Source: Dehalococcoidia bacterium
GTDB lineage: Bacteria > Chloroflexota > Dehalococcoidia > Lucifugimonadales > JAGWBF01
Assembly (NCBI GenBank): GCA_965248975.1
Contig: CBDFKU010000020.1
Location: forward strand, 152,952 to 216,951
Direction: 5' to 3'
DNA: 64,000 nt
Part shown: piece by piece, positions 1-20,541 of the stretch
How the letters are laid out: every line of letters begins with the position of its first letter
How positions within the stretch are numbered: position 1 is the first letter of the stretch
Notes under the pieces: model-generated
What the model saw: the letters and a program-made list of their open reading frames with translations, nothing else
What the model was told of the DNA's origin: nothing
Database searches by the model: none
Position numbers and translations under genes: made by a program

Positions 1-2
1 TG

Positions 3-1235
3 ACCGAGGTACACTACACCCGGCCAAACGGGGCGGATCGCTGGCTGGACGTGGCGGTGACGCCATTGCCTTCGGATGACGAGACCCTGGTCATAGTTAA
101 CGACGTCACCGAGCGCAAAGAGATACGTGAGAGGGTCCAGGAGAACGCCAGACTGGCCTCCATCGGCGAGCTGGCGGCGGGAGTGGCCCACGAGCTGAAC
201 AACCCATTGGCCGGAGTGCTAGGGTTCGCCCAGCTTCTCATGGCCAAGGCGGCCAATGCTTCCACAAAGGACGACCTGGCCAAGATTTACGAGCAAGCGC
301 AGCGGGCGACCAAGGTGGTGCAGAACCTGCTGTCCTTTGCCCGGGAGCACAAGCCCGAGCGACGGTACGTCAACGTCAATACCGCCATCGAGAAGGCCGT
401 GGCGCTCAAGCTGTACGACTTCTCCGTCAGCAACATACATCTGAGCCTGGACATCCCCCGCGACATCCCCAAAACCATGGCCGACGAGCACCAGCTCCAG
501 CAGGTGTTCCTGAACATCCTGGTAAACGCCGAGCATGCGATGAAAGAGGCTAATGGCGAGGGGAGCCTCCGCGTAACTGCCCAGCAGACTGGGGAGAAGA
601 TTCACATAACCTTTACCGACGATGGCCCCGGCATAGCCCCCGACCTACTGAAGAAGATCTTTAATCCCTTCTTCACCACCAAAGAGGTCGGCAAGGGCAC
701 CGGTCTTGGGCTAAGCATCTGCTATGGAATAATGCAGGAGCACGGCGGTACCATCTGGGCAGAGAGCGAGATTGGCCAGGGCTCCACGTTCCACATCGAG
801 CTACCCATCCTGGCTCCCGATAACGGCACTATCGCGGCGGTGTTAACTGACGTCACTCCCTCGGTCCCGACGCAGCGGTTCCTGGTCGTGGACGACGAGC
901 CGGTGGTCCGGGACCTTCTCTTCCAGGTGCTTTCGGCCGACGGCCATACTGTAGACCTGGCGTCGGGAGGTCAGGAGGCCTGGGACATGATTCGGGAGGA
1001 GCGATACAGCTGTATCGTAGCGGATTTGAGGATGCCCGGCGTAAGCGGCCAGGACCTTTACAGGCGCATAAGGGAAGCAGATTCACGATTGGCCGAGAAA
1101 GTTATCTTCATCACTGGAGACATGGCGAGGCCCGACGTCCGGGCGTTTCTGGAGAGCACGGGGAACCCGGTGATGGGCAAGCCCTTCGATCTGAGTGAGC
1201 TCCGGTGGCACGTGAGCAAGTTGTCAGAGCAATAA
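3..1235 (+). CDS. Hybrid sensor histidine kinase (PAS end, HisKA, HATPase_c, C-terminal receiver); 5' end cut by window edge
   Basis: Frame is open from nt 3 (..[21 protein letters not shown].. precedes the listed Met). H-box [12 protein letters not shown]; ATP-lid motifs DDGPGI and [13 protein letters not shown]; then REC-like [20 protein letters not shown]. Confidence 0.85.
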
Positions 1236-1259
1236 TCGGGTAGGGAGGTCTCTGGGGGT

Positions 1260-1892
1260 ATGAGTAAAATTCGAGTTTTCTTAGTTGACGACCACCCGGT
1301 GGTCAGAGAAGGTATACATCAGCTTCTGGAGCTGGACGAGCGGATCAGCGTTGTGGGGGAGGCAGGTGACGCCGAAGAGGCGGTTGAGGAGATCGGGGTC
1401 AGTATCCCTCAGGTGGTCCTGATGGACATCAAGCTGCCGGGGGCTGACGGTATCGAGGCCACACGGCGGTTGAAAGACCGCGTCCCCGAGTCCAGGGTGG
1501 TCATACTGAGCTCCTTCGGGGACCAATATCTGACCCAGGCCATCGAAGCAGGCGCCTGCGGGTACATCCTGAAGACGGCCTCTCAACCCGAGCTGGTGTT
1601 GGCGGTGGTGCAGGCGGCCAACGGCCAGTCGCCGGTGGACCCTTGCCTCAGTGGCGACCTGTTCGCCCAGGTCGCCAAACTGGCGAAGGGTGCACAGAGC
1701 GGTGGACTGTCCACGCGACAGCATGAGATTCTGGTTATGGCGGCCAACGGCTCATCGTCCAGGGACATCGAAGGCCATCTCTTCGTTAGCGAGGCCACGG
1801 TAAAGCGGGAGTTTCGGAATATTTTCGATGCCCTGGGAGTGAACGACCGCGTCCAGGCGGTGGCGGAGGCTTACAGGCGAAAGATCATCTAG
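1260..1892 (+). CDS. NarL/FixJ-type response regulator (REC + LuxR-type HTH)
   Basis: Receiver motifs VFLVDDHPVVREG..VLMDIKLPGADG; C-terminal LSTRQHEILVMAANGSSSRDIEGHLFVSEATVKREFRNIF; gggagg SD upstream. Confidence 0.9.
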   Translation: MSKIRVFLVDDHPVVREGIHQLLELDERISVVGEAGDAEEAVEEIGVSIPQVVLMDIKLPGADGIEATRRLKDRVPESRVVILSSFGDQYLTQAIEAGACGYILKTASQPELVLAVVQAANGQSPVDPCLSGDLFAQVAKLAKGAQSGGLSTRQHEILVMAANGSSSRDIEGHLFVSEATVKREFRNIFDALGVNDRVQAVAEAYRRKII

Positions 1893-1914
1893 CGAACCAG
1901 GTTCCAGGCCGGCG

Positions 1915-1956
1915 ATAAAGAGAGGAGGCCCTCAAACGAGGGCCTCCTCTCTTTAT
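1915..1956 (+). terminator. Intrinsic terminator-like hairpin after the NarL-type regulator
   Basis: ataaagagaggaggccctc / aaac / gagggcctcctctctttat: 19-bp perfect stem, 4-nt loop, T-rich tail. Confidence 0.75.
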
Positions 1957-2126
1957 GCCTTGATACACTCTTTCTCCACAATCTCCGTCATGGTGATCGT
2001 GCCAGGTTATAGACTCTCAGCCCCGGTTATACCAACTATAGCGTCTCCATCTGGCGGGCGGCTCACTGAGCGCACCTTTAGGGTCATCCAGAGTGATCCC
2101 CAGGTATCGCCAACCTTAATACCCCC

Positions 2127-2139
2127 GGAACTTAGCAGG
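2127..2139 (+). promoter_or_regulatory. Copy A of conserved 13-mer GGAACTTAGCAGG (candidate operator or -35-like element)
   Basis: Identical 13-mer recurs at 3684-3696. Lies 93 nt upstream of the CheY-like gene. Confidence 0.4.
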
Positions 2140-2672: not shown

Positions 2673-2711
2673 GAATTCAGCACCCATTGGATCACGTGAA
2701 GGAGGAAGGAA

Positions 2712-3393: not shown

Positions 3394-3683
3394 CGCCGAG
3401 CGCTTGCATCGAATATCTGTCCGGCAAATCAGCCGGGGCACCGTTGCCTTCAAGGCCGGCGGCGTGGCAGTGCCCCTCGCTGCAGGATCCGGCCCGCCCG
3501 TCACCGACCCCCTGCTCTTTGACAGCTGAATAACCGCGCCGCACATCGAAACGCATTGGGTCCCGGTGGTCGAGGTCTTTTCCTAAAAGGGAAGTCATAG
3601 TCCGGAACGCCTAATCGCGTTTCATGGAGGTCAGATCGTGGGTCATCGAGATGATCCATCAGTGTCAAAATGTCGAGACCGGG

Positions 3684-3700
3684 GGAACTTAGCAGGTTCC
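3684..3700 (+). promoter_or_regulatory. Copy B of GGAACTTAGCAGG, here forming the palindrome GGAAC-N7-GTTCC upstream of arlB1
   Basis: ggaacttagcaggttcc. Same 13-mer as 2127-2139. Lies about 200 nt upstream of the first archaellin. Confidence 0.4.
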
Positions 3701-3893
3701 GGGAAAGCTGGAACAATAAATGACAAGGATATTCCGCAGGTTCGTGGAAACCAGGAAAGGAGTGGCTTATGAGGTGATTCTTTCATGCCCGAGTGGGGGG
3801 CCGCAACACCCCGCCTAAGGGAATCACCGATCCAGAACCGTTCCAAGAGAAATAACAGACCAAGAGCAGATACAAAACAGGAGGAAAAATACA

Positions 3894-4493
3894 ATGGCAA
3901 ACCGTATATCCAGCTTTATAAGGACGGCTCCCAGGGTCTGGAAGCAGTCCAGGGGTATCACAGGACTTGAGACGGCCATCGTGCTGATAGCCTTCGTAGT
4001 GGTCTCCTCGGTGTTCGCCTTCGCGGCCTTGTCCACGGGCCTCTTCTCCGCCGACAAGTCCAAGGACACGATAAACGCGGGCCTGTCGGAAGCCAGGGGT
4101 ACCCTGGAAGTCCGGGGCACGATCATAGCCAAGGCCAACGGTGGCAAGACCGCCATCGACGAGATCTCGTTCCAGGTGGCCAACGCCGCGGGTGGCGAGG
4201 CCGTCGACATCACACCGGATGAGACCCTCATAACTTATAGCGACGTAGACCAGCTGGTCACCCTCACCAGCGCCGACTGGTCGGCCACGGGACTGGGCAA
4301 CGCCGACACAGACAAGCTGGTCGAGCCCGGCGAGATGTACGAGATCAAGCTCACCGGCTTGGAAGCCAAGCTTGTCACCGACCTGCCCAAGGACAAGCCC
4401 TTTACCCTGCAGGTCAAGCCTCCCCAGGGTGCGGTCGTCAACATCCAGCGCAGGACCCCCGTTGTGTTGGAAACTTTCAACGATCTAGGGTAA
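3894..4493 (+). CDS. arlB: Archaellin (archaeal flagellin) paralog 1
   Basis: Basic leader ..KQSRG then ITGLETAIVLIAFVVVSSVFAFAALSTGLFS (class III signal peptide plus hydrophobic helix). ~200 aa, first of three tandem paralogs upstream of arlFGHIJ-like genes. Strong aggagg SD. Confidence 0.85.
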   Translation: MANRISSFIRTAPRVWKQSRGITGLETAIVLIAFVVVSSVFAFAALSTGLFSADKSKDTINAGLSEARGTLEVRGTIIAKANGGKTAIDEISFQVANAAGGEAVDITPDETLITYSDVDQLVTLTSADWSATGLGNADTDKLVEPGEMYEIKLTGLEAKLVTDLPKDKPFTLQVKPPQGAVVNIQRRTPVVLETFNDLG

Positions 4494-4517
4494 AGGTATC
4501 TGCTCGGGTCCTTCGAA

Positions 4518-4545
4518 CTTCAGGCTTCGACGACGAAGCCTGAAG
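4518..4545 (+). promoter_or_regulatory. Perfect 12-bp stem / 4-nt loop hairpin between arlB1 and arlB2 (attenuator or mRNA-stability element)
   Basis: cttcaggcttcg acga cgaagcctgaag; no U-tract follows. Confidence 0.5.
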
Positions 4546-4597
4546 CCGGAGACCTGGGGGCGAAACACGACACATAACTTTGTAGAGAGAGATTAGA

Positions 4598-5197
4598 TTG
4601 AGACATTTACTGAAAGCCAGGATCCGACCATTTAAGAACCAGCGTGGCATTACAGGACTTGAGACGGCCATCGTGCTGATCGCCTTCGTGGTGGTCTCCT
4701 CGGTCTTCGCCTTCGCCGCGCTGTCAACGGGTCTCTTCTCCGCCGACAAGTCCAAGGACACCATCAACGCGGGCCTATCGGAAGCCAGGGGTACCCTGGA
4801 GATCCGGGGCTCCGTGATAGCGAAGGAACACGCCTCTGGTGATGTCATCGACGAGATCATTTTCCAGGTCGCCAACGCCGCGGGTGGTGAGGCCGTCGAC
4901 CTGACCCCCGGTGAGACCCTGATCACATACACCGATTTTGATCAGACGACAACGCTCGCCAAGACCTGGACAACGGGTGGATTCACGGTGACCGCCCTGG
5001 GCAACGCCGACACCGATAAGCTGGTGGAACCCGGCGAGATGTACGAAATAAAGGTCATAGGCCTGAAGAGCAAGCTTGCCACCGACCTAGTAAAGGACAA
5101 GTCCTTTACCCTCGAGGTGAAGCCTCCCCAGGGTGCGGTGGTCCACATCGATCGCAGGACTCCGGTGGTCCTGGAAACCTACATGGACCTCGGATAA
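4598..5197 (+). CDS. arlB: Archaellin paralog 2 (TTG start)
   Basis: ..KNQRG|ITGLETAIVLIAFVVV.. N- and C-terminal thirds are near-identical to paralogs 1 and 3. Confidence 0.85.
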   Translation: MRHLLKARIRPFKNQRGITGLETAIVLIAFVVVSSVFAFAALSTGLFSADKSKDTINAGLSEARGTLEIRGSVIAKEHASGDVIDEIIFQVANAAGGEAVDLTPGETLITYTDFDQTTTLAKTWTTGGFTVTALGNADTDKLVEPGEMYEIKVIGLKSKLATDLVKDKSFTLEVKPPQGAVVHIDRRTPVVLETYMDLG

Positions 5198-5277
5198 GAA
5201 CCATCAGCCGAAGGCGATCTAAGGATAGATAGCAAAATGCGAGAGGAGCTAGTGAAATGAGCTACAGAGAGAAAAAG

Positions 5278-5858
5278 ATGGGGGGGGGCTGTGGCGCGAC
5301 CAGCGCGGCATCACCGGACTTGAGACGGCCATTGTGCTGATAGCCTTCGTGGTGGTCTCCTCGGTGTTTGCCTTCGCGGCCTTGTCCACGGGCCTCTTCT
5401 CCGCCGACAAGTCCAAGGACACCATCAACGCGGGCCTATCGGAAGCCAGAGGCACCCTGGAGGTGCGAGGGTCCATAGTCGCCAAGTTAAACAGCACCGG
5501 TGATGTCGTCGACGAGATTATCTTCCAGGTAGCCAACGCCGCGGGCGGCGAGGCCGTCGATCTGACCCCCGGCGAGACACTGATCACCTATACCGATTTC
5601 GATCAGACGACGACCCTTGCGACGACCTGGACAACGGGTGGATTCACCGTGACTGCGCTCGGCAATGCCGACAGTGACAAACTGGTAGAACCCGGCGAGA
5701 TGTACGAGGTTAAGGTCATAGGCCTGGAGAGCAAGCTTGGCACCGACCTGAAAAAGGACAAGCGCTTTACCCTCGAAGTGAAGCCCCCTCAGGGTGCGGT
5801 GGTCAACATCCAGCGCAGGACCCCGGTGGTCCTCGAAACCTACATGGACCTCGGATAG
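5278..5858 (+). CDS. arlB: Archaellin paralog 3, start disrupted by the G9 tract (uninterrupted ORF only from GTG 5334, which lacks the signal peptide)
   Basis: The archaellin frame is open back to 5256 and reads ..GGGLWRDQRGITGLETAIV.. with no ATG/GTG/TTG before 5334. The ATG at 5278 aligns with the TTG start context of arlB2 (tagagagaga..). G10 or G7 would give MGG(G)LWRDQRG|ITGLE. Confidence 0.75.
5280..5288 (+). repeat. G9 homopolymer immediately after the arlB3 ATG
   Basis: aaaaagATGGGGGGGGGCTGTGG. The ATG at 5278 is out of frame with the archaellin ORF at this tract length. Confidence 0.95.
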
Positions 5859-5916
5859 TGTAAACCCAGGCGACTCAAGGCGCCAGCTGAATCGGCCACC
5901 AACGAAGGCCCCTGTC

Positions 5917-5965
5917 GAGCCGGCCCGGGACCAGCTAACGAGGCCCGCCGGTCCCGGGTCGGCTC
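5917..5965 (+). terminator. Long GC hairpin after the archaellin genes (terminator/processing-like, no T-tract)
   Basis: gagccggcccgggacc ..17 nt.. ggtcccgggtcggctc (16 bp, one G-U). Confidence 0.4.
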
Positions 5966-5995
5966 ATCGATACCCGAAGCATATGGAGGACGGCA

Positions 5996-6544
5996 ATGCC
6001 CACCGAAGAGAAAAGGATAGAGGGCCTGGAAAATGAGCTCAAGGTTCTGAAGGGACAAGTCAAGCAGACCTTGGTCGACCTCCGGGCCTACATGCTGCGG
6101 GAGTCCTCTCCTTTGCGAGAATCAGGTGGATTCGACAGGCCGCCCCAAGTGCCAAGGAGCGAAGTCAGCGTCAACAACACCGACTCGGGTAGTGGGGCCG
6201 GGCAACCCAACCAACAGCCGGCCGCTCCGGTACCGGCCGCTCCTCCACCCCCACCGGTCGCCCAGCAGCCTCAATATGCAGCTGCACCGCCTCCTCCGCC
6301 CCAGGTGGTCTATCAGCCGGCCCCGCCACCCATGGCTTCGCCACCGCCGGGTTACTCACAATACCACCCTGGGGAGCCTCAGCGGGAGCCTCAGCGCGAA
6401 TCGAGAGAGTCTCAGCGCGAGTCACGAGAGGCAGAGCGTGAGTCTCGGGGACCTCGACCTCCGCAGGACGAGTCGGAGAGGCCTCAGAGGCGGGACCGGC
6501 GACAACGTGGGGAACAGTATTCAGAGAACGAATCCACCCGGTAG
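5996..6544 (+). CDS. Archaellum-operon protein, N-terminal part: coiled coil plus Pro-rich and RE/RS-rich low complexity (ArlX/ArlD position)
   Basis: MPTEEKRIEGLENELKVLKGQVKQTLVDLRAY, then PAAPVPAAPPPPPVAQQP.., then REPQRESRESQRESREAERESRG. Ends at a TAG that is in frame with the next ORF. Confidence 0.5.
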   Translation: MPTEEKRIEGLENELKVLKGQVKQTLVDLRAYMLRESSPLRESGGFDRPPQVPRSEVSVNNTDSGSGAGQPNQQPAAPVPAAPPPPPVAQQPQYAAAPPPPPQVVYQPAPPPMASPPPGYSQYHPGEPQREPQRESRESQRESREAERESRGPRPPQDESERPQRRDRRQRGEQYSENESTR

Positions 6545-6550
6545 GACCGC

Positions 6551-7120
6551 GTGGGATATGATCGGCAGGAATCCCGCTCGGTCAGACGGGATCGAAAAGA
6601 CTCCAGGCCAGAGCGCCGCCGGGATGATGATCCCCGCCAGGCCTCACAGTCCCGGCGGATGGAGGGGGATAAACACCAGATGGAGTATGAGGAAGACTTC
6701 GAGGACATTAACGACCACTGGGACGAGTATCGACCCGAGCAGATGCCAATGTCCAGGGATCAGGTGATGGGTCCGGACAACCCTAACGTGAACATGATCT
6801 CAAACCTGGTACGGTGGGCGTTCAAGGCCAGAAGCCGCATGAGTCACGAAGCCCTCATGGACTACCTGCGACTCTATATGGCTTCCGGCAAGTATTCCGA
6901 GGAACTGAGAGATATGATCGGCTACATCTGTGACATTGTGGGAGAGAATCCGACCTACGAGCCGGATCCTTCCCAGGAATGCGTAGACCTGATTCACCAG
7001 CTTCACGGCATCCTGGCAGGGGACAGTCATATCTCGCACCGGATGCCTCCGAAGATATCTCATAACGGACACTCTGGTGGCCAGGATCGAAAAGGACTGT
7101 ATACCAATGGGAGGGGTTGA
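6551..7120 (+). CDS. Archaellum-operon protein, C-terminal part (same frame as 5996-6544); tentative ArlD/E-like C-terminal domain
   Basis: The charged RD/RE-rich linker continues across the TAG. The C-terminal NMISNLVRWAFKARSRMSHEALMDYLRLYMASGKYSEELRDMIGYI resembles, from memory only, the W..F...L.YY..GWIS pattern of FlaD/E. No convincing SD before GTG 6551. Confidence 0.4.
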   Translation: MGYDRQESRSVRRDRKDSRPERRRDDDPRQASQSRRMEGDKHQMEYEEDFEDINDHWDEYRPEQMPMSRDQVMGPDNPNVNMISNLVRWAFKARSRMSHEALMDYLRLYMASGKYSEELRDMIGYICDIVGENPTYEPDPSQECVDLIHQLHGILAGDSHISHRMPPKISHNGHSGGQDRKGLYTNGRG

Positions 7121-7602
7121 GCGTGGAGAAGACTATTACGACTGCCCTGCTGGTTATAGCGGGCATCATAGCCGCCGTGGCACTGATCAACGCAGTGCTT
7201 CCGGCCGCCAATAAAGGCTCTGGAGCGCTGCTGATGGCCAACGCGGCCTCAGCGGACCGCATCAAGACTGACGTGGAGATTGTGTTCGCTTCCGGCAACG
7301 CCACCGGCGACGAGATCAACTTCTGGGTGAAGAACGTGGGGAGCAACGTCATCAAGCCCATAGACGAATCGGATGTGTTCGTTACTACGCCCACCATCAT
7401 CAGTCGCATCCCTTACAACGCCTCGTGTACGGCGGGCTCTGCGCCCTGCTGGAAGCATGCCCTGGAAGGCGGAGCCACCGCCTGGACCTTGTCGGCAACG
7501 GTCAAAGTCAGCGTGTATCTCAGCAGCGGGACTGCCGGGCTTCATAAGATAAAAATAGCCGTTTACAACTCGGTCAGTGCTGAGAAAGAGTTCAGTATCT
7601 AG
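7117..7602 (+). CDS. ArlF/ArlG-family archaellum protein (N-terminal TM helix + beta-rich domain)
   Basis: TITTALLVIAGIIAAVALINAVL followed by a beta-rich soluble domain. TTG start overlaps the upstream stop (TTGA), with gggagggg SD. Confidence 0.6.
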   Translation: MSVEKTITTALLVIAGIIAAVALINAVLPAANKGSGALLMANAASADRIKTDVEIVFASGNATGDEINFWVKNVGSNVIKPIDESDVFVTTPTIISRIPYNASCTAGSAPCWKHALEGGATAWTLSATVKVSVYLSSGTAGLHKIKIAVYNSVSAEKEFSI

Positions 7603-7707: not shown

Positions 7708-8240
7708 ATGAGTGCGGTAATTTCAGGGGGATTGATCATCTCACTGTTCATACTGGTGGCGATGCTAATCTCCAGCACTTTCCTGACCACCAGCGACACC
7801 CAGGCCACCTCGCTCAAGGAAATCTCGAAACTACGGATCGACCAGATAGGCGGCGACATATCTATTACTTCTACCATCGCTGCCAACTCGGGAGACGGGA
7901 CCAACGTGACACTAGCCGTAAATAACCCCGGATCCATCGGATATGGAGACTTCTCGCAGGTGGACGTGGTAATCGATTACACCAACACCACCGGCGATCA
8001 AGAGGTAAGGCGTCTGACCTATGTTTGCAGGCAGCTATGCGGAAACTCGGCGGATCCCGGAGACAACCAGTGGACCGTCACCAGCCTGGTCCCCGATGGT
8101 TACAGCCCCAAGATGTGGAACCCCGACGAGGTGGCAAACATGACCTTGAACTCGTTCCCACGGTCAAGAGTGGGACGTCAGGAACGGTAGCCGTAGCCGT
8201 CCCGGGCGGGGTCTCGGACTCGGCCTACTACACCAACTAG
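7708..8240 (+). CDS. Second ArlF/ArlG-family protein; probable frameshift near 8143-8155 (uninterrupted ORF stops at 8190)
   Basis: N-terminal TM helix GGLIISLFILVAMLISSTFL. After ..EVANMTL, the adjacent frame reads ELVPTVKSGTSGTVAVAVPGGVSDSAYYTN*. This parallels the C-terminus of the neighbouring paralog (..LSSGTAGLHKIKIAVYNSVSAEKEFSI*). The listed frame ends in the atypical NSFPRSRVGRQER. Confidence 0.55.
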
Positions 8241-12208: not shown

Positions 12209-12697
12209 ATGGCGTTCATGAGCAAGTTCAAGAACAAGAAGGGCTCCAAAGACGAGCTAGATGATGAGATGCCAGATCTGGATTCAGATCTGGACGATGA
12301 CTCCGATGAGGAGGAAGAGAAGGAAAGCGACGTCGGAAGGTTCAAGCTCAACACCGTAAAGCTGAAAAAGAACCCAGATGACTCCGCCAAGACCGAAGAC
12401 GAGGAAGAAGACGCCGAAGCAGACGACGAAGCCGATGAGGCCGACGAAGATGAAGACGACGATGAGTCGGCCGAAAATGCATCCGTCGGTGAGGCAGAGA
12501 GCCCAGACGACTCGTTGATGGACCTCTTCGAGGTTGAAGAGGTGGTAGACCACCATCTCATCTCAATGGCTTCATGGGCGGATGAAGTGGAGGCGACGGA
12601 GTTGGCCGAGGAGCTGGATGCACTGGTCGACGAGATGCGCGAACGGTGGGGAGACGAAGACGATTACGAGCCAGAGGAAGAAAGACGGATATCATGA
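12209..12697 (+). CDS. Extremely acidic (D/E-rich) 162-aa protein of unknown function, last gene of the archaellum cluster
   Basis: DELDDEMPDLDSDLDDDSDEEEEKE..EDEEEDAEADDEADEADEDEDDDE..; gaggagg SD. No domain recognised. Confidence 0.5.
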   Translation: MAFMSKFKNKKGSKDELDDEMPDLDSDLDDDSDEEEEKESDVGRFKLNTVKLKKNPDDSAKTEDEEEDAEADDEADEADEDEDDDESAENASVGEAESPDDSLMDLFEVEEVVDHHLISMASWADEVEATELAEELDALVDEMRERWGDEDDYEPEEERRIS

Positions 12698-12761: not shown

Positions 12762-14327
12762 ATGGGTATGATCACGGGTAGCCAGGGGGAACTTACTATG
12801 CCGCAAGGGATGAGCGTCGGCTCGAAAATGGGCACCCTTGGCCGTGGGATGGGACGATACAAGCTGACCGTCTTCTTTGCCATTACCGCGGCGCTGGTTA
12901 TCGCTGTCGGCTCGGTAATAGTGAATCATGTCATACGCGACCTCCCCGTCGACAACGTGGTGAGGATAGCGGAAGAGAACGCGACGCTGGAGGTTCAACG
13001 GATCGAGTCTTTGATGCGGGCGGCGGGCAGTAACGACCTTCAGGAGTCCCTGCCGGCGGACCTTGAGTCTTTGATCGACTCCAGCAGCGGTGTCCTTGGT
13101 CGCTTGCAGGGTTTGGATATCGTGAAGTTCAATCTGCTGAACACCGACGGAGCTCTTTTGTGGAGCGCCAGACAGGGCCAGGCCGGACTCTCTGACGAGC
13201 AGGTTTACCTGTTTCAGGGCGCCCTGGCCGGACAGACCCGATCGCGGTTGGTCGACGGCCGATTCCTGGTCGACATGAACGGCGTTGAGCAAAGGGTCGA
13301 CGTGGCCGAAACCTATATACCCGTCACGAACGCATCCTCGGGAGAAATTGTCGGCGTCCTGGAGGTCCACAGCGACGTGACCAGAGAGGCTGCCCTTCAG
13401 GTGGACGGCGCGAAGTCGGCCCTTCGTATCACAATGGGGACCATGGCTGGCCTGGTGCTGGTCCTCCTCGGCTTCGTGGTGGTGGCCGACGTAATGATCT
13501 CCCGGTCCAGCCGGCGTGAGCTGTCCCTGGTGGAGGAAGCCAACCGTAACCTGGAAGAACGGGCTAGAGAGCGAGCTCAGGAGTTGGAGCGTGCTAACCA
13601 GCAGCTAGTCGAAGCCCAGGACCAGCTGGTACGCACCGAGAGGTTGGTAGCCATCGGACAGCTCTCCGGCAGCGTAGCCCACGATCTGAGGAATCCCCTG
13701 GGGGCCATCAACAATGCCATCTATTACCTGCGCAGGAGGCTGAACAACAGCGAGGCAGTCCGTTCCAATCCCAGGATCGGGCAGTTTCTGCAGATCATCG
13801 AGGACGAGGTACAGCACTCCAACCAGATAATCACGGATCTGATGAACTTCGCGCGGGCCAAGGCTCCCTCCCTTTCTCCGACGAATCTCGAGACGGTGAT
13901 CGAAGACACCATCTCCACCATCGCGTTGAGGGAGGATGTCAGGATCACCCGGCTGTTTGAGTCAGACCTACCGGCGGTTCCGGCCGACGCCGACCAGCTG
14001 CTGCGGGTTTTCATGAACCTGATCGTCAACGCTCAGGACGCGATGCCCGACGGTGGCGAGCTGACCATCAACGCCAACGTTGTGGGTAACTACGTCGAAG
14101 TGGGCTTCAGGGACAGGGGCATGGGAATACCCAATGAAGACATGAAGAAGATATTCGACCCCCTGTTTACGACAAAGACGCAGGGTACCGGTTTGGGACT
14201 GGCCATCTGCCAGCAGATCATTTCAAAGCATGGCGGGACCATCGACGTATCCGGCGGGTACGGCCAGGGCGCCACCTTCACCGTTAAGCTGCCCCGATTA
14301 ATCGAAAGATCGGACGGAGGAATGTAA
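12762..14327 (+). CDS. Membrane sensor histidine kinase (TM - extracytoplasmic domain - TM - coiled coil - HisKA - HATPase_c)
   Basis: TM segments LTVFFAITAALVIAVGSVIV and MGTMAGLVLVLLGFVVVADV; H-box SGSVAHDLRNPL; DRGMGI; GTGLGLAICQ. Confidence 0.9.
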   Translation: MGMITGSQGELTMPQGMSVGSKMGTLGRGMGRYKLTVFFAITAALVIAVGSVIVNHVIRDLPVDNVVRIAEENATLEVQRIESLMRAAGSNDLQESLPADLESLIDSSSGVLGRLQGLDIVKFNLLNTDGALLWSARQGQAGLSDEQVYLFQGALAGQTRSRLVDGRFLVDMNGVEQRVDVAETYIPVTNASSGEIVGVLEVHSDVTREAALQVDGAKSALRITMGTMAGLVLVLLGFVVVADVMISRSSRRELSLVEEANRNLEERARERAQELERANQQLVEAQDQLVRTERLVAIGQLSGSVAHDLRNPLGAINNAIYYLRRRLNNSEAVRSNPRIGQFLQIIEDEVQHSNQIITDLMNFARAKAPSLSPTNLETVIEDTISTIALREDVRITRLFESDLPAVPADADQLLRVFMNLIVNAQDAMPDGGELTINANVVGNYVEVGFRDRGMGIPNEDMKKIFDPLFTTKTQGTGLGLAICQQIISKHGGTIDVSGGYGQGATFTVKLPRLIERSDGGM

Positions 14328-15049
14328 TGACGGAACACCAGGGCAGGATCATGGTTGTCGACGACGATCTGGGTATGAGGGTCACCCTCGAGGGCGTCAT
14401 CGAAGATGAAGGTTACGAGGTCGTTGCGGTGGAGGATGGATACCAGGCTATCGAGATGGTTAGGCAAACGGAATTCGCCCTTATCTTCATGGATATCAAG
14501 ATGCCGGGGTTGAACGGAGTCGAGACCTACAGGGAGATCAGAAAGATAAGCCCGGACTCCGTCGTGGTCATGATGACCGGTTTCTCCGTGGAAGACCTTG
14601 TCAAAGAGTCCCTGGAAGTCGGGGCCTACTCCGTGATCTACAAGCCCTTCGACATGGCCCAGGTGATCGAGATCGTCGAAGCCGTTCTGGAGACCACGTG
14701 CGTGTTGGTGGTAGACGATCGTGCGGCCGACCGGATAACCCTGCAGGGCATCCTCGAGGACGAGGGATACGACGTGTTCGTGGCGCAACACGGAAGCCAG
14801 GCCGTTTCCATGGTACGGGAGAAACACTACAGGGTGATCCTGATGGACATAAAAATGCCCGGCATGGACGGAATCTCCGCCTTCGAGGAGATCCGGAAGA
14901 TCGACCCGCAGGTGAAAGTCATTTTCGTCACCGGGTACGCCATGGACGACGCTGTGAAAGGAGCCCTCAAGAGGGGCGCCTACTCCCTGGTTATCAAGCC
15001 GGTCCGGCCGGAAGAGATGCTGACCCTGATGAAGGCAATCACGCAATAG
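14327..15049 (+). CDS. Tandem double-receiver response regulator (REC-REC, no output domain)
   Basis: IMVVDDD..IFMDIKMPGLNG..YKPF and VLVVDDR..ILMDIKMPGMDG..IKPV. Start overlaps the kinase stop (TAATG). Confidence 0.9.
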   Translation: MTEHQGRIMVVDDDLGMRVTLEGVIEDEGYEVVAVEDGYQAIEMVRQTEFALIFMDIKMPGLNGVETYREIRKISPDSVVVMMTGFSVEDLVKESLEVGAYSVIYKPFDMAQVIEIVEAVLETTCVLVVDDRAADRITLQGILEDEGYDVFVAQHGSQAVSMVREKHYRVILMDIKMPGMDGISAFEEIRKIDPQVKVIFVTGYAMDDAVKGALKRGAYSLVIKPVRPEEMLTLMKAITQ

Positions 15050-15059
15050 GAGACAAGAT

Positions 15060-17009
15060 ATGGCTTATCTGGCAAATATTCTTGTGGTGGATGATGAGAA
15101 GGGCACGCTGGACACCCTTGTCGGCGTCCTTGAGGGAGAAGGCCACCGGGCAGTCGGGTTCCAGAGTGGGGCGGAGGCCATCAGGAGCCTGGTGGCTGAG
15201 GAAGCCAGCGCAGACATAGACATCGTCATATCTGACCTGAAGCTGCCCGATATGAGCGGTCTTGAGATACTGATGGCGCTCAAGAAAATCAAGCCCGATG
15301 CAGCCTTCATTCTGATGACCGGCTACGCCACCGTCGAGACGGCCATCGAAGCGGTGAACAAAGGCGCCTTCACTTATCACATGAAGCCCCTGGACCTGGA
15401 CGCCCTGGGCAACAGCATCCGCAACGCGGTGCGGCACCAGGAGCTTCTGGCGGAGAACAAGAAGCTCCTGGACAGGCTGCAGCGGATGAACAAAGAGCTC
15501 ACTATATCCAACCGGGAGCTGCAGAACGCTGCCGAGCGGGTCCGCCTGTCGGAAATCAAGTACCGGACTGTAGTGGAGCAGGCAGGTGACGGCATCTTCA
15601 TAGTGGATCCAGAGAATGGAAACTTCGTTGAGGTCAATCCCAGGATGGAGGCCTTGACCGGTTATTGTCGGGAGGAGCTGCTCAATCTGATCATGCCGAT
15701 GCTCCATCCCGAGTCCGAGCAGACCGCCGGCATGGGACTGCTGGGGCGGACGTTGGAGCACGGACATGGGGGTGCGGATTATCTCTCCTTCCAGCAGAAA
15801 AACGGGGACCGGATTCCGGTGGACCTGAACACCAACCTAGTGGAGTACGAGGGCAGGAGCGTGGTCCTGGGGATCGCCAGGGACGTGACCGAGCGAAAGA
15901 CCGTGGAAGAGCGCGTCCGGGAGACCAGTCGACTGGTCTCCGTCGGAGACCTGGCGGCCGGGGTCGCCCATGAGATCAACAACCCACTCACCATCATTCT
16001 AGGATTTTCCCAGCTGCTGATGGCCAGGGAGCTCCCCGATCAGGTCGGATCCCACGTGGAGAGGATCTACACCGAGGCCCAGAGAGCGGCGAAGATCGTT
16101 CAGAACCTGATCTCCTTCGCCTGGAGGCGCCGGCCCGAGAAACAGTACATGGACGTGACCGCGGTCCTGCAGCGGGCACTGGAGCTGAAATCCTATGACT
16201 TCAAGGTAAACAACATCGAGGTCTCTGCTCTATGGGACCGTGACTTGCCCCTTACCATGGTCGACGAGTACCAGATGACCCAGTCCATTATCAACATCAT
16301 GAACAACGCCGAGCAGGCCATGTACGAGGCCCACCAGGGCGGAAGGCTCACCATTCGTGCCAGCAGGTCCGATGATAGGATTAAGGTCACCATCGCCGAC
16401 GATGGGCCCGGCATCCTCGTCGAGCATCTGCGAAAGATATTCGATCCCTTCTTCACTACCAGGGAAGTGGGCTCGGGGACCGGCCTCGGTCTGAGCATAT
16501 GCTACGGAGTGATCCGGCAGCACGGCGGAACGATCTGGGCCGAGAGCGTTCCCGACGGCGGCACCACGGTCTGCATCACGCTGCCTATATCCAGAGCCAG
16601 ATCCTGGGAAGATTCGGAGTCCGGTGAGGAATTCGTATCGACCAAACACCTGTTGGTCGTAGAGGACGAGCCCCACCTGCGGGACCTCTTGGCCGATGCC
16701 CTGGCCATCGAGCGCTACATGGTGGACATGGCGGAGGATGAGCTGGAGGCTCGACGTAAGCTAGGAAAGCATCCATACGACTGCGTGGTGTTGGACCTGA
16801 AGGCGTCGAAAGATGGTGGCTGGCGCCGTTGCCGGCTTATCGAGGACTGTGACAGGGATATGGCCGGCAGAGTGATCTTCGTGGCCGGAAACGAGGATGG
16901 GGCCTGGGCCGAGGCCACAGGGAATCCGATGGTGAGGGAGCCCTTCAGCATAGAAGAGCTACGACGCCAAATCCTCGGACCGAGGGAGATGGCGCCGGCT
17001 TACCGGTAG
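15060..17009 (+). CDS. Hybrid histidine kinase REC-PAS-HisKA-HATPase_c-REC
   Basis: [21 protein letters not shown]; PAS region; H-box [12 protein letters not shown]; DDGPGI; [13 protein letters not shown]; C-terminal [14 protein letters not shown]. Paralog of the kinase at 3-1235. Confidence 0.9.
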
Positions 17010-17061
17010 ACGGGCGTCATAGAGAACACGGCCGATGAAAGATCGATAGGAGACCCCGGTA

Positions 17062-19086
17062 ATGAACCACAAAGCCAACATACTGGTTGCTGACGACGAA
17101 GCAGGGATGAGGGACACCTTGGCCGCCATCCTCGAGGACGAGGGCTATGGGGTGATCGTCTGCGGAGGAGGCCGTGCCGCCCTGAAACACCTGGAGGAGA
17201 CCACCATAGACGTGGTCATATCGGACCTGAACCTGCCCGACATCAGTGGCCTGGAAATCCTAATGGCCCTGAAGCACGTCCATCCCGATGCGCCATTTAT
17301 CCTTATCACGGGCCATGCCACTGTCGAAACCGCGGTAGAAGCGATGAACAAGGGGGCCTTTGCCTACCATGTGAAGCCCTTCGATCCGGGTGCGATTCAC
17401 AACAGCGTCCGAAACGCCCTGAAGCAGCGGCGTTTGCAGATGGAGAATAAGGACCTGCTGGAGATGCTGAGCCGGTCCAACGAGGAGCTGAAGGCCGCCC
17501 GGGACGCGGCCATCGAGGCGTCAAGGACCAAGTCGGAGTTCCTCTCCACCATGAGCCACGAGATTCGCACCCCCTTGAACTCCATCCTGGGGATGGCGGA
17601 CCTCCTTTCCACTACCCGGCTGAGTCCCGAGCAGTACGAATACGTCCGGGTTTTCCGGACCTCCGGTGAGACGCTGCTGGTGCTGATTAACGACATCCTG
17701 GACCTGTCCAGGGTCGAGGCGGGACAGGTGGTCCTGGAAGAGATCGAGTTCGATCTGGTCGAGCTGATCGATGACGTCGCCGAGTTCCTTGTTGTCAGTG
17801 CCCATGAGAGGGGTCTGGAGCTGAACTGTCGCGTCGCCCCCGACGTTCCGGCCACGGTAAAGGGTGACCCGGTCCGCTTACGCCAGGTCCTAACCAACCT
17901 CATAGGCAACGCCATCAAGTTCACCGAGGACGGGGAAGTGAATGTGGATGCCAGCCTTCGTGCCGGCACGGACGGGACCGACTACCTTCAGTTTCAGGTA
18001 ATTGACACGGGGATTGGCATTCCCGAAGAGAAGCTGGACATCATCTTCGACAGCTTTACCCAGGCCGACGCTTCGACGACGCGGCAACACGGAGGTACTG
18101 GGCTGGGCCTGGCCATATGCTGCCGGTTGGTGGAGCTAATGGGAGGGCGTATCTGGGTCGAAAGCAAGGAGGGTAGGGGCAGTCGATTCTCCTTCACCGT
18201 AAGCGTTGACGTCGACGAGGAGAGTCGGGTTGTCCCGGCACGCGACGCTGACCTGGAAGGCCTCGACACCCTCGTGGTTGACGACAACTCCACCGGTCGC
18301 GCCAACCTGAAAGAGATGCTGGGGTCCTGGGGCGCCTCGGTGATTGAAGCGGAGGACGGCTACCAGGCGCTCGTTCTCGCCAACCGGTCCCAGGTAGGGC
18401 CGGAAGAACGCCAGGTTGTGCTGTTAGACAGCCAGATGCCCGGCATGGATGGGTTCGTGGTGGCCGAAGAGCTAAGTACCAGCCTGGGTTCCCTGGATAG
18501 GGTCGTCATGATGCTCAAGTCGGACCACCTTACCGGCGACCTGGCCAGATGTCGCCAGATGGGGATCTCGAACTACGTGGTCAAGCCGGTGAGGCGGTCT
18601 CAGCTGCTCAAAGCCATCAAGGCGGCCGTCAATGGAACGGTTGGGCAGGATGAGGAGGGACAACCGGCCGATCCCGCCATGGATGTCCCCGACACCGAAC
18701 GTCCGTTGCGCATCCTGTTGGTCGAAGACTCCAGGGACAACCGTCTGCTAATCCAAGCTTACCTGAAGAGGACAGCGTACAAAATGGACATGGCCGAGAA
18801 TGGTCAGGTCGCCTTCGACAAGTTCGTGGCCGGGGCCTACGACGTAGTGCTGATGGACATGCGGATGCCCATTGTGGACGGGTACACGGCCACCCAGATG
18901 ATAAGGAAGTGGGAACGGGAAGCCGGCGTGGCTTCGATCCCCATCATCGCCCTTACTGCTCATGCTCTTCAGGAGGACGCTCAGAAGAGCCTGGAAGCGG
19001 GATGCGATGCCCACGTGACCAAGCCGGTAAAGATGATGACCCTGATCGAGGCAATAAACGACCATACAAGGGGTGTGAGAGTATGA
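17062..19086 (+). CDS. Hybrid histidine kinase REC-HisKA-HATPase_c-REC-REC
   Basis: H-box LSTMSHEIRTPLNSI; DTGIGI; GGTGLGLAIC; two C-terminal receivers (VLLDSQMPGMDG and VLMDMRMPIVDG). Confidence 0.9.
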   Translation: MNHKANILVADDEAGMRDTLAAILEDEGYGVIVCGGGRAALKHLEETTIDVVISDLNLPDISGLEILMALKHVHPDAPFILITGHATVETAVEAMNKGAFAYHVKPFDPGAIHNSVRNALKQRRLQMENKDLLEMLSRSNEELKAARDAAIEASRTKSEFLSTMSHEIRTPLNSILGMADLLSTTRLSPEQYEYVRVFRTSGETLLVLINDILDLSRVEAGQVVLEEIEFDLVELIDDVAEFLVVSAHERGLELNCRVAPDVPATVKGDPVRLRQVLTNLIGNAIKFTEDGEVNVDASLRAGTDGTDYLQFQVIDTGIGIPEEKLDIIFDSFTQADASTTRQHGGTGLGLAICCRLVELMGGRIWVESKEGRGSRFSFTVSVDVDEESRVVPARDADLEGLDTLVVDDNSTGRANLKEMLGSWGASVIEAEDGYQALVLANRSQVGPEERQVVLLDSQMPGMDGFVVAEELSTSLGSLDRVVMMLKSDHLTGDLARCRQMGISNYVVKPVRRSQLLKAIKAAVNGTVGQDEEGQPADPAMDVPDTERPLRILLVEDSRDNRLLIQAYLKRTAYKMDMAENGQVAFDKFVAGAYDVVLMDMRMPIVDGYTATQMIRKWEREAGVASIPIIALTAHALQEDAQKSLEAGCDAHVTKPVKMMTLIEAINDHTRGVRV

Positions 19087-19409
19087 GTACGAGGTACGAC
19101 ACCATGGGCAATGGTCGGGTTCATGTAAATGTGGACCAAGACCTGCAGGACATTATTCCGGGGTTCCTGGAGCGCCGTGGAGAGGACGTGGCGTCCATCC
19201 TGGAAGGGCTCGAGCAGGGCGACTACGAGACGATCCGGTACCTGGGCCACAGTATGAAGGGTGCCGGAGGGGGATACGGGTTCGACGCCATCACAGAGAT
19301 GGGACGTGACCTGGAGCGGGCTGCGGGTAACCATGACCGCGATGAGATTCTCAAGTTGGCGGGGGAGCTTTCGGCCTACTTGGAGCTGGTCGAGCCGGTC
19401 TACGGATAG
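19083..19409 (+). CDS. Hpt (histidine phosphotransfer) protein
   Basis: ATG overlaps the stop of the upstream kinase. Contains YLGHSMKGAGGGYGF, the HxxKG phosphotransfer motif. Confidence 0.75.
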   Translation: MSTRYDTMGNGRVHVNVDQDLQDIIPGFLERRGEDVASILEGLEQGDYETIRYLGHSMKGAGGGYGFDAITEMGRDLERAAGNHDRDEILKLAGELSAYLELVEPVYG

Positions 19410-19479
19410 TGGGTGTAGCCCGCGGTCCGAGAGATCTAGTGACGGCCGAAGGAATGGCTGATTCTGGGAGGTGCAACCG

Positions 19480-20541
19480 ATGAGCGTATTGATAGTTGAC
19501 GATTCCCTCGATAATCGACTGCTCATCAGAAAATTCCTTGAGAGCGATTACCCTTGCATAGAGGCATCCAACGGTAACGCTGCCCTGGATGTCCTTGGCT
19601 CGGAGTCGGTGGACCTTGCGCTGCTCGACATCATGATGCCGGGCATGACCGGGTTGAGCCTGTTCCAGCACATAATGGACCTCTACCCCGAGGTAGCGGT
19701 GATCTTCGTTACCTCGGTGGACGATCTTCGCATAGCTGTAGAGCACCTGAAGAAGGGCGCCTACGAGTACATCGTCAAGCCCGTGACGCGAGAGCGCTTG
19801 CGAGGGGCCGTGGATGAGAGCTTGGAGAAACGGGCTTCTGTCCTTGAAGAAAAACAGCAGCAAATGCAGAGAGAGGAGCGGTTGGTCCGGCAGAACCAGG
19901 AGCTGGAGTCGCGCGCACGGGAGATCTCCTCCATCAATCGTTTGATCCAGGCCGACCTTACGCAAAGGTTCGACGAGGTCGAACCCTTGAGCGAGGGTGG
20001 GATTGCCTTTCAAAGTCATTGGCAAGGGACTCAGCTTGCGGAGGTTCCCTACGGCGTCCAGACTCCCTGGGGAGCCATGTCGGCGGAAGGGCCCAACGCC
20101 TCGATGAACCTCGAAGCCTACTCAGGCTCCCTGACCGATAACACGCCGGGGCTGGTCCCTATGCTGAGGTCCCTGGTTCAACAGTTCCGCCGGCGGGTCA
20201 ACGTCGAGCTATACGTAGAGGCCGACATCGAAGGTCGGATCAGAAACGACAACAGGTTGTCCTTCGGGGAGCTCCAGAAGGGGATGCGCCGTATCCTCGA
20301 AGAGGCCTTGGACAACGTGGTCAAGCATGCGCACGCAAAGTCCGCCATCGTAATGCTACGCCAGCGAGAGGACGGGCGCATCTGCCTCGACGTGATTGAC
20401 AATGGGCGTGGCTTCCTGGTCAATGGGGAGTCCGACACGATAGGATTGCTGGCCATGAAGCATTACAGCGCGGAGCTGGGTGGCGTGTTTCGCATCGCCA
20501 GCATACCGGGGCAGGGCACTATCGTTCGAGTAATCCTGTAA
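19480..20541 (+). CDS. Receiver + coiled coil + GHKL/HATPase_c protein lacking an obvious H-box
   Basis: VLIVDDS..ALLDIMMPGMTG..YIVKPV; C-terminal EEALDNVVKHAHA..VIDNGRGF..PGQGTIVRV (NarX/DegS-type ATPase). ATG 19480 preferred because gggagg lies 9 nt upstream. Confidence 0.75.
   Translation: MSVLIVDDSLDNRLLIRKFLESDYPCIEASNGNAALDVLGSESVDLALLDIMMPGMTGLSLFQHIMDLYPEVAVIFVTSVDDLRIAVEHLKKGAYEYIVKPVTRERLRGAVDESLEKRASVLEEKQQQMQREERLVRQNQELESRAREISSINRLIQADLTQRFDEVEPLSEGGIAFQSHWQGTQLAEVPYGVQTPWGAMSAEGPNASMNLEAYSGSLTDNTPGLVPMLRSLVQQFRRRVNVELYVEADIEGRIRNDNRLSFGELQKGMRRILEEALDNVVKHAHAKSAIVMLRQREDGRICLDVIDNGRGFLVNGESDTIGLLAMKHYSAELGGVFRIASIPGQGTIVRVIL

Follow-up and report, generated by a model that had tools for sequence, protein, structure and literature searches.

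Signalling genes around an archaellum operon of a Dehalococcoidia bacterium and their possible part in motor control

Gene clusters for the archaeal motility motor, the archaellum, have already been described from bacteria of the phylum Chloroflexota. According to the account of Litorilinea aerophila, this species has a functional archaellum filament, its swimming cells switch occasionally and a cheY-like gene lies at the cluster; CheF is reported there to be absent from Chloroflexota, and another coupling component is said to be needed (PMC12488501). A term search of that paper showed that neither histidine kinases nor two-component systems nor LuxR are mentioned in it. In a second study, which covered 226 Chloroflexota genomes bearing archaellum (arl) genes, F1-type CheA is recorded in 58 and ACF-type CheA in 24 (82 of the 226 in total), and the CheY label given to the lone receiver at the cluster is disputed (10.64898/2026.05.11.724246). 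About two-thirds of archaellum-bearing Chloroflexota are without detectable CheA, and the 2025 structural paper and the 2026 chemosensory survey raise the question of how a bacterium might steer, or turn on, an archaeal motor that came without its CheF adaptor. Described systems with which a bacterial answer can be compared include the CheY-CheF-ArlCDE pathway of Euryarchaeota, QarABC of the archaeon Haloferax volcanii (PMC13464002) and the 'four-component' RedCDEF system of Myxococcus xanthus, which controls development, not motility (PMC2755868). Here we describe an archaellum operon embedded among two-component and LuxR-type genes in a 64-kb stretch of DNA from a Dehalococcoidia bacterium (contig CBDFKU010000020.1, positions 152,952 to 216,951), and compare it with 80 Dehalococcoidia arl loci (L001-L080), each taken with 10 kb on either side.

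The window, by which we mean the whole 64-kb stretch, contains at positions 1-20541, the locus under study, an arl2-type archaellum operon with signalling genes on both flanks, as assigned by Pfam; all plausible genes of the locus lie on the + strand. Its signalling content amounts to 11 receiver (REC) domains, four HisKA kinases, one REC-GHKL protein, one Hpt protein and two GerE regulators. The remaining 43 kb (20.5-64 kb), by contrast, yielded no REC, HisKA/HATPase or GerE domain, against 11, four and two, respectively, in 1-20541, and the concentration of signalling genes around the operon is clearly non-random. No member of the CheA, CheW, methyl-accepting chemotaxis protein (MCP), CheB, CheR or CheF families was found in any sizeable open reading frame (ORF) of the 64-kb window, which bears out, at this scale, the absence of CheA/CheW/MCP/CheF-like genes remarked on in the first-pass annotation, a set of notes made earlier on the same DNA.

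Our preferred reading, held with about even confidence, is that the archaellum is controlled by transcriptional regulators of the LuxR/NarL type together with a co-expressed phosphorelay that may act on the KaiC-like ATPase ArlH. It would entail phosphotransfer, DNA binding, co-transcription and contact with ArlH, and is drawn from domain content, clustering, paralogy, homology, synteny statistics and hairpins, which were observed directly. Judged on these data, the transcription factor of the LuxR/NarL family appears the best-supported control point, and a link between the downstream phosphorelay and the archaellum is plausible, albeit one that the nearest relatives do not conserve. It is reasonable to suppose that the motor might be governed by two-component signalling in place of chemotaxis proteins, because two-component genes are associated with arl clusters recurrently, and partly independently, across the Dehalococcoidia. 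The signalling genes of the locus are of three origins: an upstream trio of stand-alone receiver, Zn-ribbon protein and LuxR solo; a pair consisting of a hybrid histidine kinase (HK1) and a NarL-type regulator; and a downstream block.

Regulators of the LuxR/NarL type at archaellum clusters

The 80 arl loci were annotated with profiles for REC, kinase core, GerE, Hpt and arl proteins. A two-component or LuxR-type gene was present within 3 kb in 33 of the 44 loci with both flanks sampled. On the upstream side, 29 of 46 loci with enough flank had a GerE regulator no more than 3 kb from arlB, and downstream a two-component gene followed within 3 kb of the cluster in 37 of 67. The density of two-component genes around arl was 0.34/kb at 0-3 kb, 0.16/kb at 3-6 kb and 0.105/kb at 6-10 kb. 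The expectation that the neighbourhood would prove conserved in relatives was therefore borne out as regards the recurrence of two-component and LuxR-type neighbours across Dehalococcoidia, but not as regards the specific arrangement, which is not found in L001 or L002.

These associations take several forms. Group A comprises 24 Dehalococcoidales loci with the gene order B-F-G-J-CDE-H-I-acidic protein, and in all 24 the cluster is followed by a membrane HK, a dual receiver (REC-REC), a REC-GAF-HK protein and an OmpR/KdpE-type regulator; upstream, wherever the flank was sampled, lies a divergent GerE regulator. The group is diverse (ArlI proteins 60-98% identical, median 72%; REC-REC proteins 44-99%), and beyond the module a further single REC is kept in 17 of the loci with enough downstream flank, with non-signalling genes varying and present in 8-10 loci. 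Group B consists of 11 loci in which a NarL-type regulator of the arl-associated family stands directly behind the cluster. In L026, the genes directly upstream of arlB encode an Hpt protein, a REC-HK, a REC and a REC-GerE protein, and both L004 and L013 have a REC and a REC-GerE protein in this position.

The corresponding upstream features of the window are as follows.

3-1235, + strand: HK1, hybrid kinase with PAS-HisKA-HATPase_c-REC architecture (Pfam), its 5' end cut off
1260-1892, + strand: NarL-type response regulator, REC-GerE (Pfam), with the canonical acceptor Asp in the REC alignment
1915-1956, + strand: perfect 19-bp hairpin, likely terminator of the HK1-NarL unit
2232-2672, + strand: REC1, stand-alone receiver (Pfam), nearest solved relatives NtrC-type receivers (PDB)
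2712-2915, + strand: 67-aa Zn-ribbon protein (CxxC...CxxC; CPKC...CIQC), with homologs in L004, L008 and L012
2962-3393, + strand: LuxR solo, GerE domain only (Pfam), 46% identical to the full-length REC-GerE protein of L002
3692-3713 and 3736-3757, + strand: two 22-nt direct repeats, GCAGGTTCnnGGAAAnCnGGAA, 44 nt apart and 140-200 nt before arlB1, a candidate operator

An alignment of all GerE proteins revealed that one distinctive NarL-like family adjoins arl in 42 of the 80 loci. The 143-aa LuxR solo aligns with the C-terminal half of this family only; there is a stop codon just before its ATG, and neither Pfam nor a receiver profile built from the window detected a REC domain in it. By this alignment it is the ortholog, minus the receiver, of the regulator most widely conserved beside arl clusters. 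Within the family, the acceptor Asp is kept in L002, L004, the L035 group and Group B. The divergent regulator of Group A (for instance L047:505-1236, - strand) instead has Ser, Gly or Thr at the acceptor position, making its receiver a pseudo-receiver. The lineages with a non-phosphorylatable regulator, namely Group A and the window, are the two that have an operon of HK, REC-REC and REC-HK behind the cluster; as this match involves two events only, it may be a coincidence. A homologous pair of REC1 and Zn-ribbon genes adjoins the same regulator in L004 (L004:2333-3025, - strand).

According to the preferred reading, the LuxR solo would bind the 500-nt region before arlB1, where the 22-nt repeats are candidate sites, and set the expression of both archaellins and motor. 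Because its receiver is missing and phosphorylation would no longer be possible, its activity would have to depend on partners encoded nearby, either REC1 with the Zn-ribbon protein or the NarL regulator at 1260-1892. The repeat has no further copies in the window even when two mismatches are allowed (0.03 matches expected). A scan for the sigma-70 consensus gave hits no more numerous than in shuffled sequence.

The HK1-NarL pair could feed the same promoter as a separate unit. The hairpin at its end has a predicted folding free energy (dG) of -45.7 kcal/mol and a z-score of -7.05, none of 200 shuffles being as stable, and so the pair is probably its own transcript; this GC-rich hairpin also matches Rfam models of miRNA precursors, on both strands and purely by shape. 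An ORF at 1960-2235, in the 339-nt gap between the NarL regulator and REC1, was rejected as a gene: it has a TTG start and no family match, and begins right behind the hairpin. HK1 and the downstream kinase HK3 (15060-17009) are paralogs with 46% identity over 379 aa (E 3e-113), in agreement with the earlier description of two paralogous PAS hybrid kinases on either side of the operon.

The downstream phosphorelay and its relatives

Behind the last arl gene, which encodes an acidic protein, the following genes make up the downstream block.

12762-14327, + strand: HK2, membrane sensor kinase, HisKA-HATPase_c (Pfam), 53% full-length identity to the L082 kinase
14327-15049, + strand: REC-REC dual receiver (Pfam), start overlapping the HK2 stop, both acceptor Asp residues present
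15060-17009, + strand: HK3, hybrid kinase, REC-PAS-HisKA-HATPase_c-REC (Pfam), C-terminal REC without the conserved Thr and Lys
17062-19086, + strand: HK4, hybrid kinase, REC-HisKA-HATPase_c-REC-REC (Pfam), 43% identical to the L082 REC-HK
19083-19409, + strand: stand-alone Hpt protein with HSMKG motif (Pfam Hpt, 27.9 bits; cutoff 24.6), start overlapping the HK4 stop
19471-20541, + strand: REC-GHKL protein made up of REC, coiled coil and HATPase_c (Pfam), with no recognisable HisKA

With the receiver profile built from the window, the acceptor Asp was found in all 11 REC domains, Thr and Lys being absent solely from the C-terminal REC of HK3. The components of a relay are present by sequence: C-terminal REC domains on HK1, HK3 and HK4, an Hpt protein with its His, and a NarL regulator and stand-alone receivers with acceptor Asp residues. 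The locus has the parts for a putative His-Asp-His-Asp relay. The Hpt protein is 47% identical to the Hpt protein encoded upstream of arlB in L026.

From the gene for the ArlC/D/E-position protein through arlJ, the acidic protein gene and HK2 to the REC-GHKL gene, neighbouring genes are separated by 0-65 nt or overlap. This stretch contains weak structures only, with no strong hairpin and no predicted terminator on the + strand, and HK2 starts 65 nt behind the acidic protein gene, on the same strand and with no hairpin between them. The downstream block is therefore probably co-transcribed with the genes for the ArlC/D/E-position protein through ArlJ. Three kinds of unit fit the predicted structures: an HK1-NarL transcript, abundant archaellin transcripts, and one long transcript for motor and phosphorelay. 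HK2, REC-REC, HK3, HK4, the Hpt protein and the REC-GHKL protein could accordingly form a relay co-expressed with the genes from arlCDE to arlJ, whose output would be either the NarL/LuxR regulators or the KaiC-like ArlH.

Over 12762-19086 the block follows the gene order of a family of operons consisting of a sensor HK, a dual receiver and a REC-HisKA-HATPase kinase. The closest homologs of its REC-REC protein (68-71% identity) are encoded in operons of HK, REC-REC and REC-HK (L081-L084) that are mostly bordered by insertion sequences (IS). A metagenome scan for the REC-REC operon recovered 80 loci, with the order HK, REC-REC, REC-HK, REC, REC wherever the contig was long enough. One such operon, in L118, encodes REC, PASx3-HK, REC-REC, REC-HK, REC and an OmpR-type regulator. 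The trailing single REC and OmpR-type regulator occur in both L118 and Group A; in the window their place is taken by a second hybrid kinase, the Hpt protein and the REC-GHKL protein. By these comparisons the block is an expanded member of a widespread, self-contained family of multi-component operons that has lost the usual OmpR-type output.

The window and Group A seem to have acquired their operons separately. The REC-REC protein of the window is 68-72% identical to those of close relatives without arl genes and 41-57% to those of the metagenomic loci, as against 28-33% to those of Group A, for which the best identity to loci without arl genes has a median of 47%. In a neighbour-joining tree of REC-REC proteins, Group A was monophyletic in 100 of 100 bootstraps, as was the window together with its close relatives without arl genes, while the window and Group A grouped in none of 100. 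The idea that the window triad and the Dehalococcoidales triad are orthologous remnants was rejected, operons without arl genes being far closer to each than the two are to one another; many independent losses from a single ancestral arrangement may nevertheless be envisaged. As the REC-REC proteins of the window and Group A never group, the simplest interpretation is that operons of this family were placed behind arl clusters at least twice independently, and such repeated placement argues for a functional reason.

A possible point of contact with the motor is indicated by the operon of L082 and L083, which is orthologous to that of the window: the HK shares 53% identity with HK2 along its entire length, the REC-REC proteins are 68% identical, and the REC-HK matches HK4 at 43% and the first REC of HK3 at 55% identity. 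The next gene of this operon encodes a REC-ArlH fusion (L082:12070-13164). The ATPase half of the L082 fusion is 48% identical to the ArlH protein of the window over its whole length (E 2e-82), and its best full-length matches among solved structures are FlaH proteins, higher-ranked RecA entries aligning over short stretches only. At least 324 database proteins are such fusions, labelled, where named, 'response regulator [Chloroflexota/Dehalococcoidia]' or 'FlaH'; no description of a REC-ArlH fusion was found in the literature searched. In a tree of ArlH domains, the fusions were monophyletic in 48 of 50 bootstraps and nested among the ArlH proteins of Chloroflexota arl clusters, which were never monophyletic without them (0/50); both stood apart from two archaeal ArlH proteins (50/50). 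By this nesting, the fusion arose from the archaellum's own ArlH after transfer into bacteria. In L170, the gene after a REC-ArlH fusion encodes a PilB-like ATPase (MshEN and T2SSE, split by a probable frameshift; L170:11979-13577), and type IV pilus motors of bacteria may have taken on regulators of the ArlH type.

How ArlH interacts with ArlI is known to depend on the phosphorylation state of ArlH (bioRxiv 10.1101/2021.03.19.436134). Should the downstream phosphorelay act on the motor, ArlH is preferable to ArlCDE as its candidate target, given that the orthologous operon of the nearest relatives encodes a REC-ArlH fusion; the ArlH of the window itself is stand-alone, not fused to a receiver. 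A stronger proposal is that Dehalococcoidia, having gained the archaellum without CheF, rewired its control so that classical phosphorelays feed directly into the motor via ArlH; receivers encoded next to the operon would do this in the window and in the 24 Dehalococcoidales loci, a REC-ArlH fusion elsewhere, and the acidic protein may serve as a docking adaptor. This proposal we regard as unlikely.

A number of observations weigh against the preferred reading. The search for che genes covered the 64-kb window, and a che system may be present elsewhere in the source genome; look-ups of the exact ArlI, NarL regulator, LuxR solo and REC-REC proteins, meant to reach beyond the window, gave no recorded match. 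Neither of the closest loci, L001 and L002 (74-78% ArlI identity), has the downstream signalling block: the cluster of L001 is followed by a XerD-like recombinase (L001:5550-6518) and that of L002 by an IS630-like element and then unrelated metabolism, with no flank genes in common with the window. SAR202-like loci with the arl gene order of the window have no two-component genes within about 8 kb; as Zn-ribbon homologs lie near the ends of two of them, L008 (21050-21304, - strand) and L012 (17075-17317, - strand), about 8 kb from arl, loci of this kind may carry such genes just beyond the sampled flank. No arl genes occur within 10 kb of the four closest REC-REC operons or in any of the 80 metagenomic REC-REC loci (many of the contigs being short and truncated), and the L118 operon lies between smpB and purL; operons of this family must therefore have functions unrelated to archaella, and the family is not archaellum-specific. 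The fusions inspected (L082, L083, L165-L171) are not beside arl either, lying in two-component operons, in metabolic neighbourhoods or beside the PilB-like ATPase. The 22-nt repeat had no match in 84 loci. Finally, three arl genes of the window carry lesions, as described below, and should they prove real, the cell may lack a working motor for the signalling genes to act on. The earlier suggestion that a phosphorelay controls the motor is accordingly upheld in some respects and weakened in others: the recurrent two-component and LuxR-type neighbours, the lack of che genes in the window and the lack of a hairpin before the kinases speak for it, and the absence of the block from L001 and L002 and the arl-less relatives of the operon speak against it.

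Several of these points would also be explained if a general signalling operon had landed beside arl by chance at a recombination-prone junction and controlled something else, leaving the LuxR-type regulator alone, if anything, dedicated to the archaellum. The many relatives of the REC-REC operon without arl nearby (80 metagenomic and the four closest), including that between smpB and purL, would fit, as would the finding that L001, L002 and the window have nothing in common beyond the core of regulator, arl genes and acidic protein. So would the recombinases and IS (XerD-like, IS630-like, IS3 and IS110) that abut arl clusters and signalling operons of the closest relatives (L081-L083 at about 6.4-8.2 kb; L170:4287-5249). 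However, the block is co-directional with arl and follows it closely without an intervening hairpin, the same operon type has become fixed independently behind arl in 24 diverse loci of another lineage, and further lineages have other two-component configurations at their arl clusters. Moreover, the orthologous operon of L082/L083 encodes a protein with an ArlH half, and the other 43 kb of the window are free of two-component genes. We therefore consider a chance neighbourhood somewhat unlikely.

The archaellum operon and the state of its genes

The arl genes between the two sets of signalling genes, and the acidic protein gene that closes the cluster, are listed below.

3894-4493, + strand: arlB1, archaellin (Pfam Arch_flagellin), followed by a hairpin at 4500-4560 (dG -37)
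4598-5197, + strand: arlB2, archaellin (Pfam Arch_flagellin)
5257-5858, + strand: arlB3, archaellin (Pfam Arch_flagellin), with a start-frame problem and followed by a hairpin at 5907-5966 (dG -41)
5996-7120, + strand: ArlC/D/E-position protein, coiled coil at the N-terminus and conserved domain at the C-terminus, the gene split by an in-frame TAG
7117-7602 and 7708-8190, + strand: two ArlF/ArlG-type stator genes (weak Arch_flagellin; NCBIfam ArlG/ArlF below cutoff)
8285-8998, + strand: arlH, KaiC-like ATPase (Pfam KaiC, 76.1 bits)
9001-10722, + strand: arlI, motor ATPase (Pfam T2SSE, 125.7 bits)
10670-12153, + strand: arlJ, platform protein, found by tblastn with the intact ArlJ of L002, frameshifted
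12209-12697, + strand: acidic 162-aa protein, 42% Asp and Glu, basic at the N-terminus, conserved motif of about 45 aa at the C-terminus

Every gene listed in the first-pass annotation was recovered with Pfam at or near the place assigned to it. The relatives of ArlI are Dehalococcoidia and SAR202 metagenome-assembled genomes, with identities of 54-78% across the 80 loci and of 78% and 74% for the top two, and the source is a SAR202-like Dehalococcoidia bacterium with an arl2-type operon. The three archaellins score 75.8-98.7 bits with Arch_flagellin (cutoff 29.5). ArlJ is 68-77% identical to that of L002, which itself scores 420 bits against NCBIfam ArlJ/FlaJ (equivalog cutoff 570). The ArlC/D/E-position protein of the window has no direct match in Pfam or NCBIfam, even at E 10; an iterative profile ties it to proteins in the same position in 70 loci, including Archaeoglobus, and two archaeal proteins of this position match Arch_fla_DE weakly (16.8-19.5 bits, cutoff 21).

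Three of these genes are interrupted. In arlB3, the ATG and the mature part lie in different frames across a run of nine G (G9, 5280-5288), and arlJ changes frame at a run of seven (G7, 11209-11215), where one base is missing by comparison with the gene for the intact 502-aa ArlJ of L002. In the gene at 5996-7120, there is an in-frame TAG at 6542-6544, so that what had been annotated as one product is not a single ORF here. These lesions may be assembly errors, real gene decay or slipped-strand on/off switching of motility. Frameshifts at long homopolymers are a typical signature of long-read error. As the G9 and G7 runs are the sole runs of seven or more G in the window, both coinciding with frameshifts, and as related public contigs have names implying 3x-8x long-read coverage and contain obviously split genes, homopolymer error in the assembly is a serious possibility.

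Were the lesions real, the archaellum operon might be in the course of being lost, and the signalling genes would then regulate nothing related to the motor, or be remnants. The two frameshifts would be consistent with this, as would a TAG in a gene whose N-terminal coil and C-terminal domain are encoded in one ORF in 67 loci, including Archaeoglobus and another archaeon. On the other hand, both frameshifts fall where long-read errors would be expected, the TAG lies within a low-complexity linker and is followed 7 nt on by a GTG restart, in a gene whose two halves are encoded separately in a few other loci, and the arl genes other than arlB3, arlJ and that for the ArlC/D/E-position protein are intact and 51-80% identical to relatives. 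A decaying locus is thus improbable.

It had also been proposed that the stand-alone receivers are CheY-like switch ligands; phosphorylated REC1 or REC-REC would bind the ArlCDE-like protein in the manner of CheY and, taking the place of CheY-CheF, switch or halt rotation. The window does encode an ArlC/D/E-position protein, single-REC genes recur near arl clusters, and the first REC of REC-REC, nearest to Spo0F, is about equally close to the archaeal and Thermotoga CheY proteins that rank next; in the L. aerophila account, CheF is absent from Chloroflexota and swimming cells occasionally switch (PMC12488501). Yet REC-REC reaches 140.5 bits, summed over its two domains, against NCBIfam CheY_Halo, below the cutoff of 200, and REC1, which had been described as CheY-like, resembles NtrC-type receivers, its closest solved structures, more than CheY. 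Since the CheY score is under the cutoff and CheA, CheW and MCP are absent, the receivers do not belong to a Che pathway within the window. Given further that REC-REC and single-REC proteins of this operon family occur in genomes and contexts without archaella, that the analogous receivers of RedCDEF are phosphotransfer intermediates (PMC2755868) and that the sole fusion evidence points to ArlH and not to ArlCDE, a CheY-like switch at ArlCDE, for which family scores, nearest structures and fusion data provided no evidence, is highly improbable.

The acidic protein is the closing gene of arl clusters in about 65 of the 80 loci, with or without two-component genes behind it. It starts with a basic peptide (M-x-F-K-x-F-K...) and has a low-complexity linker and, at the C-terminus, a conserved motif (SL..LF..EE..P L..L...DV.A.EL..DL.E), matched no Pfam or NCBIfam family, and was not detected in two archaeal loci or in the signalling operons without arl genes. 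In L002, two inverted IS copies are found (3564-4688 and 13543-14688): the arlB region contains one copy, and the other separates arlJ from what is left of the acidic protein gene. A shared insertion site with L002 was considered and rejected, the similar-looking downstream enzymes being just 28-34% identical.

In L003 (13956-21724) and the equivalent stretches of L005-L009, which are SAR202-like, arl is followed by glmS and a gene for a 444-aa protein with a prokaryotic N-methylation motif, along with a GT1 glycosyltransferase, a phosphodiesterase and a GHMP kinase; this flank may represent an archaellin glycosylation or pilin-related set. The remainder of the window (20649-64000) has the paralog-rich catabolism typical of the SAR202 style, with four Amidohydro_2 proteins, two luciferase-like monooxygenases and two large molybdopterin dehydrogenase subunits, in addition to PrpD, citrate synthase, an enzyme resembling PEP mutase/isocitrate lyase, and ThiG/ThiE. 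No tRNA genes were found in the 64-kb window, and a search of positions 1-21000 for riboswitches or other RNA families gave only hairpin-like, sub-threshold Rfam matches.

Comparison with described systems

Taken together, the locus and its relatives supply four candidates for the control of a bacterial archaellum: the LuxR/NarL regulator found at most clusters, phosphorelay operons recruited at least two times, the REC-ArlH family and the closing acidic protein. If any of these proved to act on the archaellum, it would show how a horizontally acquired machine was plugged into the host's own signalling, and an input through ArlH would be a new kind of signalling to a rotary motor with a type IV filament, different from CheY-FliM as well as from CheY-CheF-ArlCDE. 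If no candidate controls the motor, the archaellum operon would merely stand beside an ordinary signalling island.

The window has the same horizontally acquired arl2-type cluster as the Chloroflexota described previously, L. aerophila among them, with a receiver at the cluster (there called cheY) and no CheF; kinases, Hpt, LuxR/NarL regulators, the acidic protein and REC-ArlH fusions are not described in the accessible parts of those reports (PMC12488501; 10.64898/2026.05.11.724246). With the CheY-CheF-ArlCDE pathway of Euryarchaeota it has in common a motor of the same family (ArlB, F, G, H, I, J and an ArlC/D/E-position protein) and receivers encoded beside the motor. By contrast with that pathway, the window is without CheA, CheW, MCP and CheF, its receivers fall under the CheY threshold, and it has HisKA sensor and hybrid kinases and a separate Hpt protein. 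Both its ArlH and the ArlH half of the fusions belong to the ArlH (FlaH) family, whose known regulation is by autophosphorylation (bioRxiv 10.1101/2021.03.19.436134), whereas input from a fused or neighbouring receiver was not found described in the literature searched.

Further parallels are found in signalling systems that are not part of an arl cluster. In QarABC of H. volcanii, a kinase and two response regulators decide the motility of an archaellated cell through the transcription of motility and shape genes (PMC13464002); that system, however, is archaeal, is encoded away from the arl locus and has no established kinship with the window genes, and H. volcanii has a full che system. Similarly, RedCDEF of M. 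xanthus combines a membrane HK, a dual receiver, a second kinase or kinase-like protein and a single-domain receiver in one circuit (PMC2755868). Its likeness to the downstream block is one of architecture only; the operon family of the window usually ends in an OmpR-type regulator, and the window copy has two hybrid kinases, an Hpt protein and a REC-GHKL protein. Lastly, the regulators associated with arl clusters have the REC and GerE helix-turn-helix domains of NarL/LuxR response regulators, of which the protein at 1260-1892 is a canonical example, but they form a distinct family, in which the receiver has become degenerate in Group A and is missing from the LuxR solo of the window.

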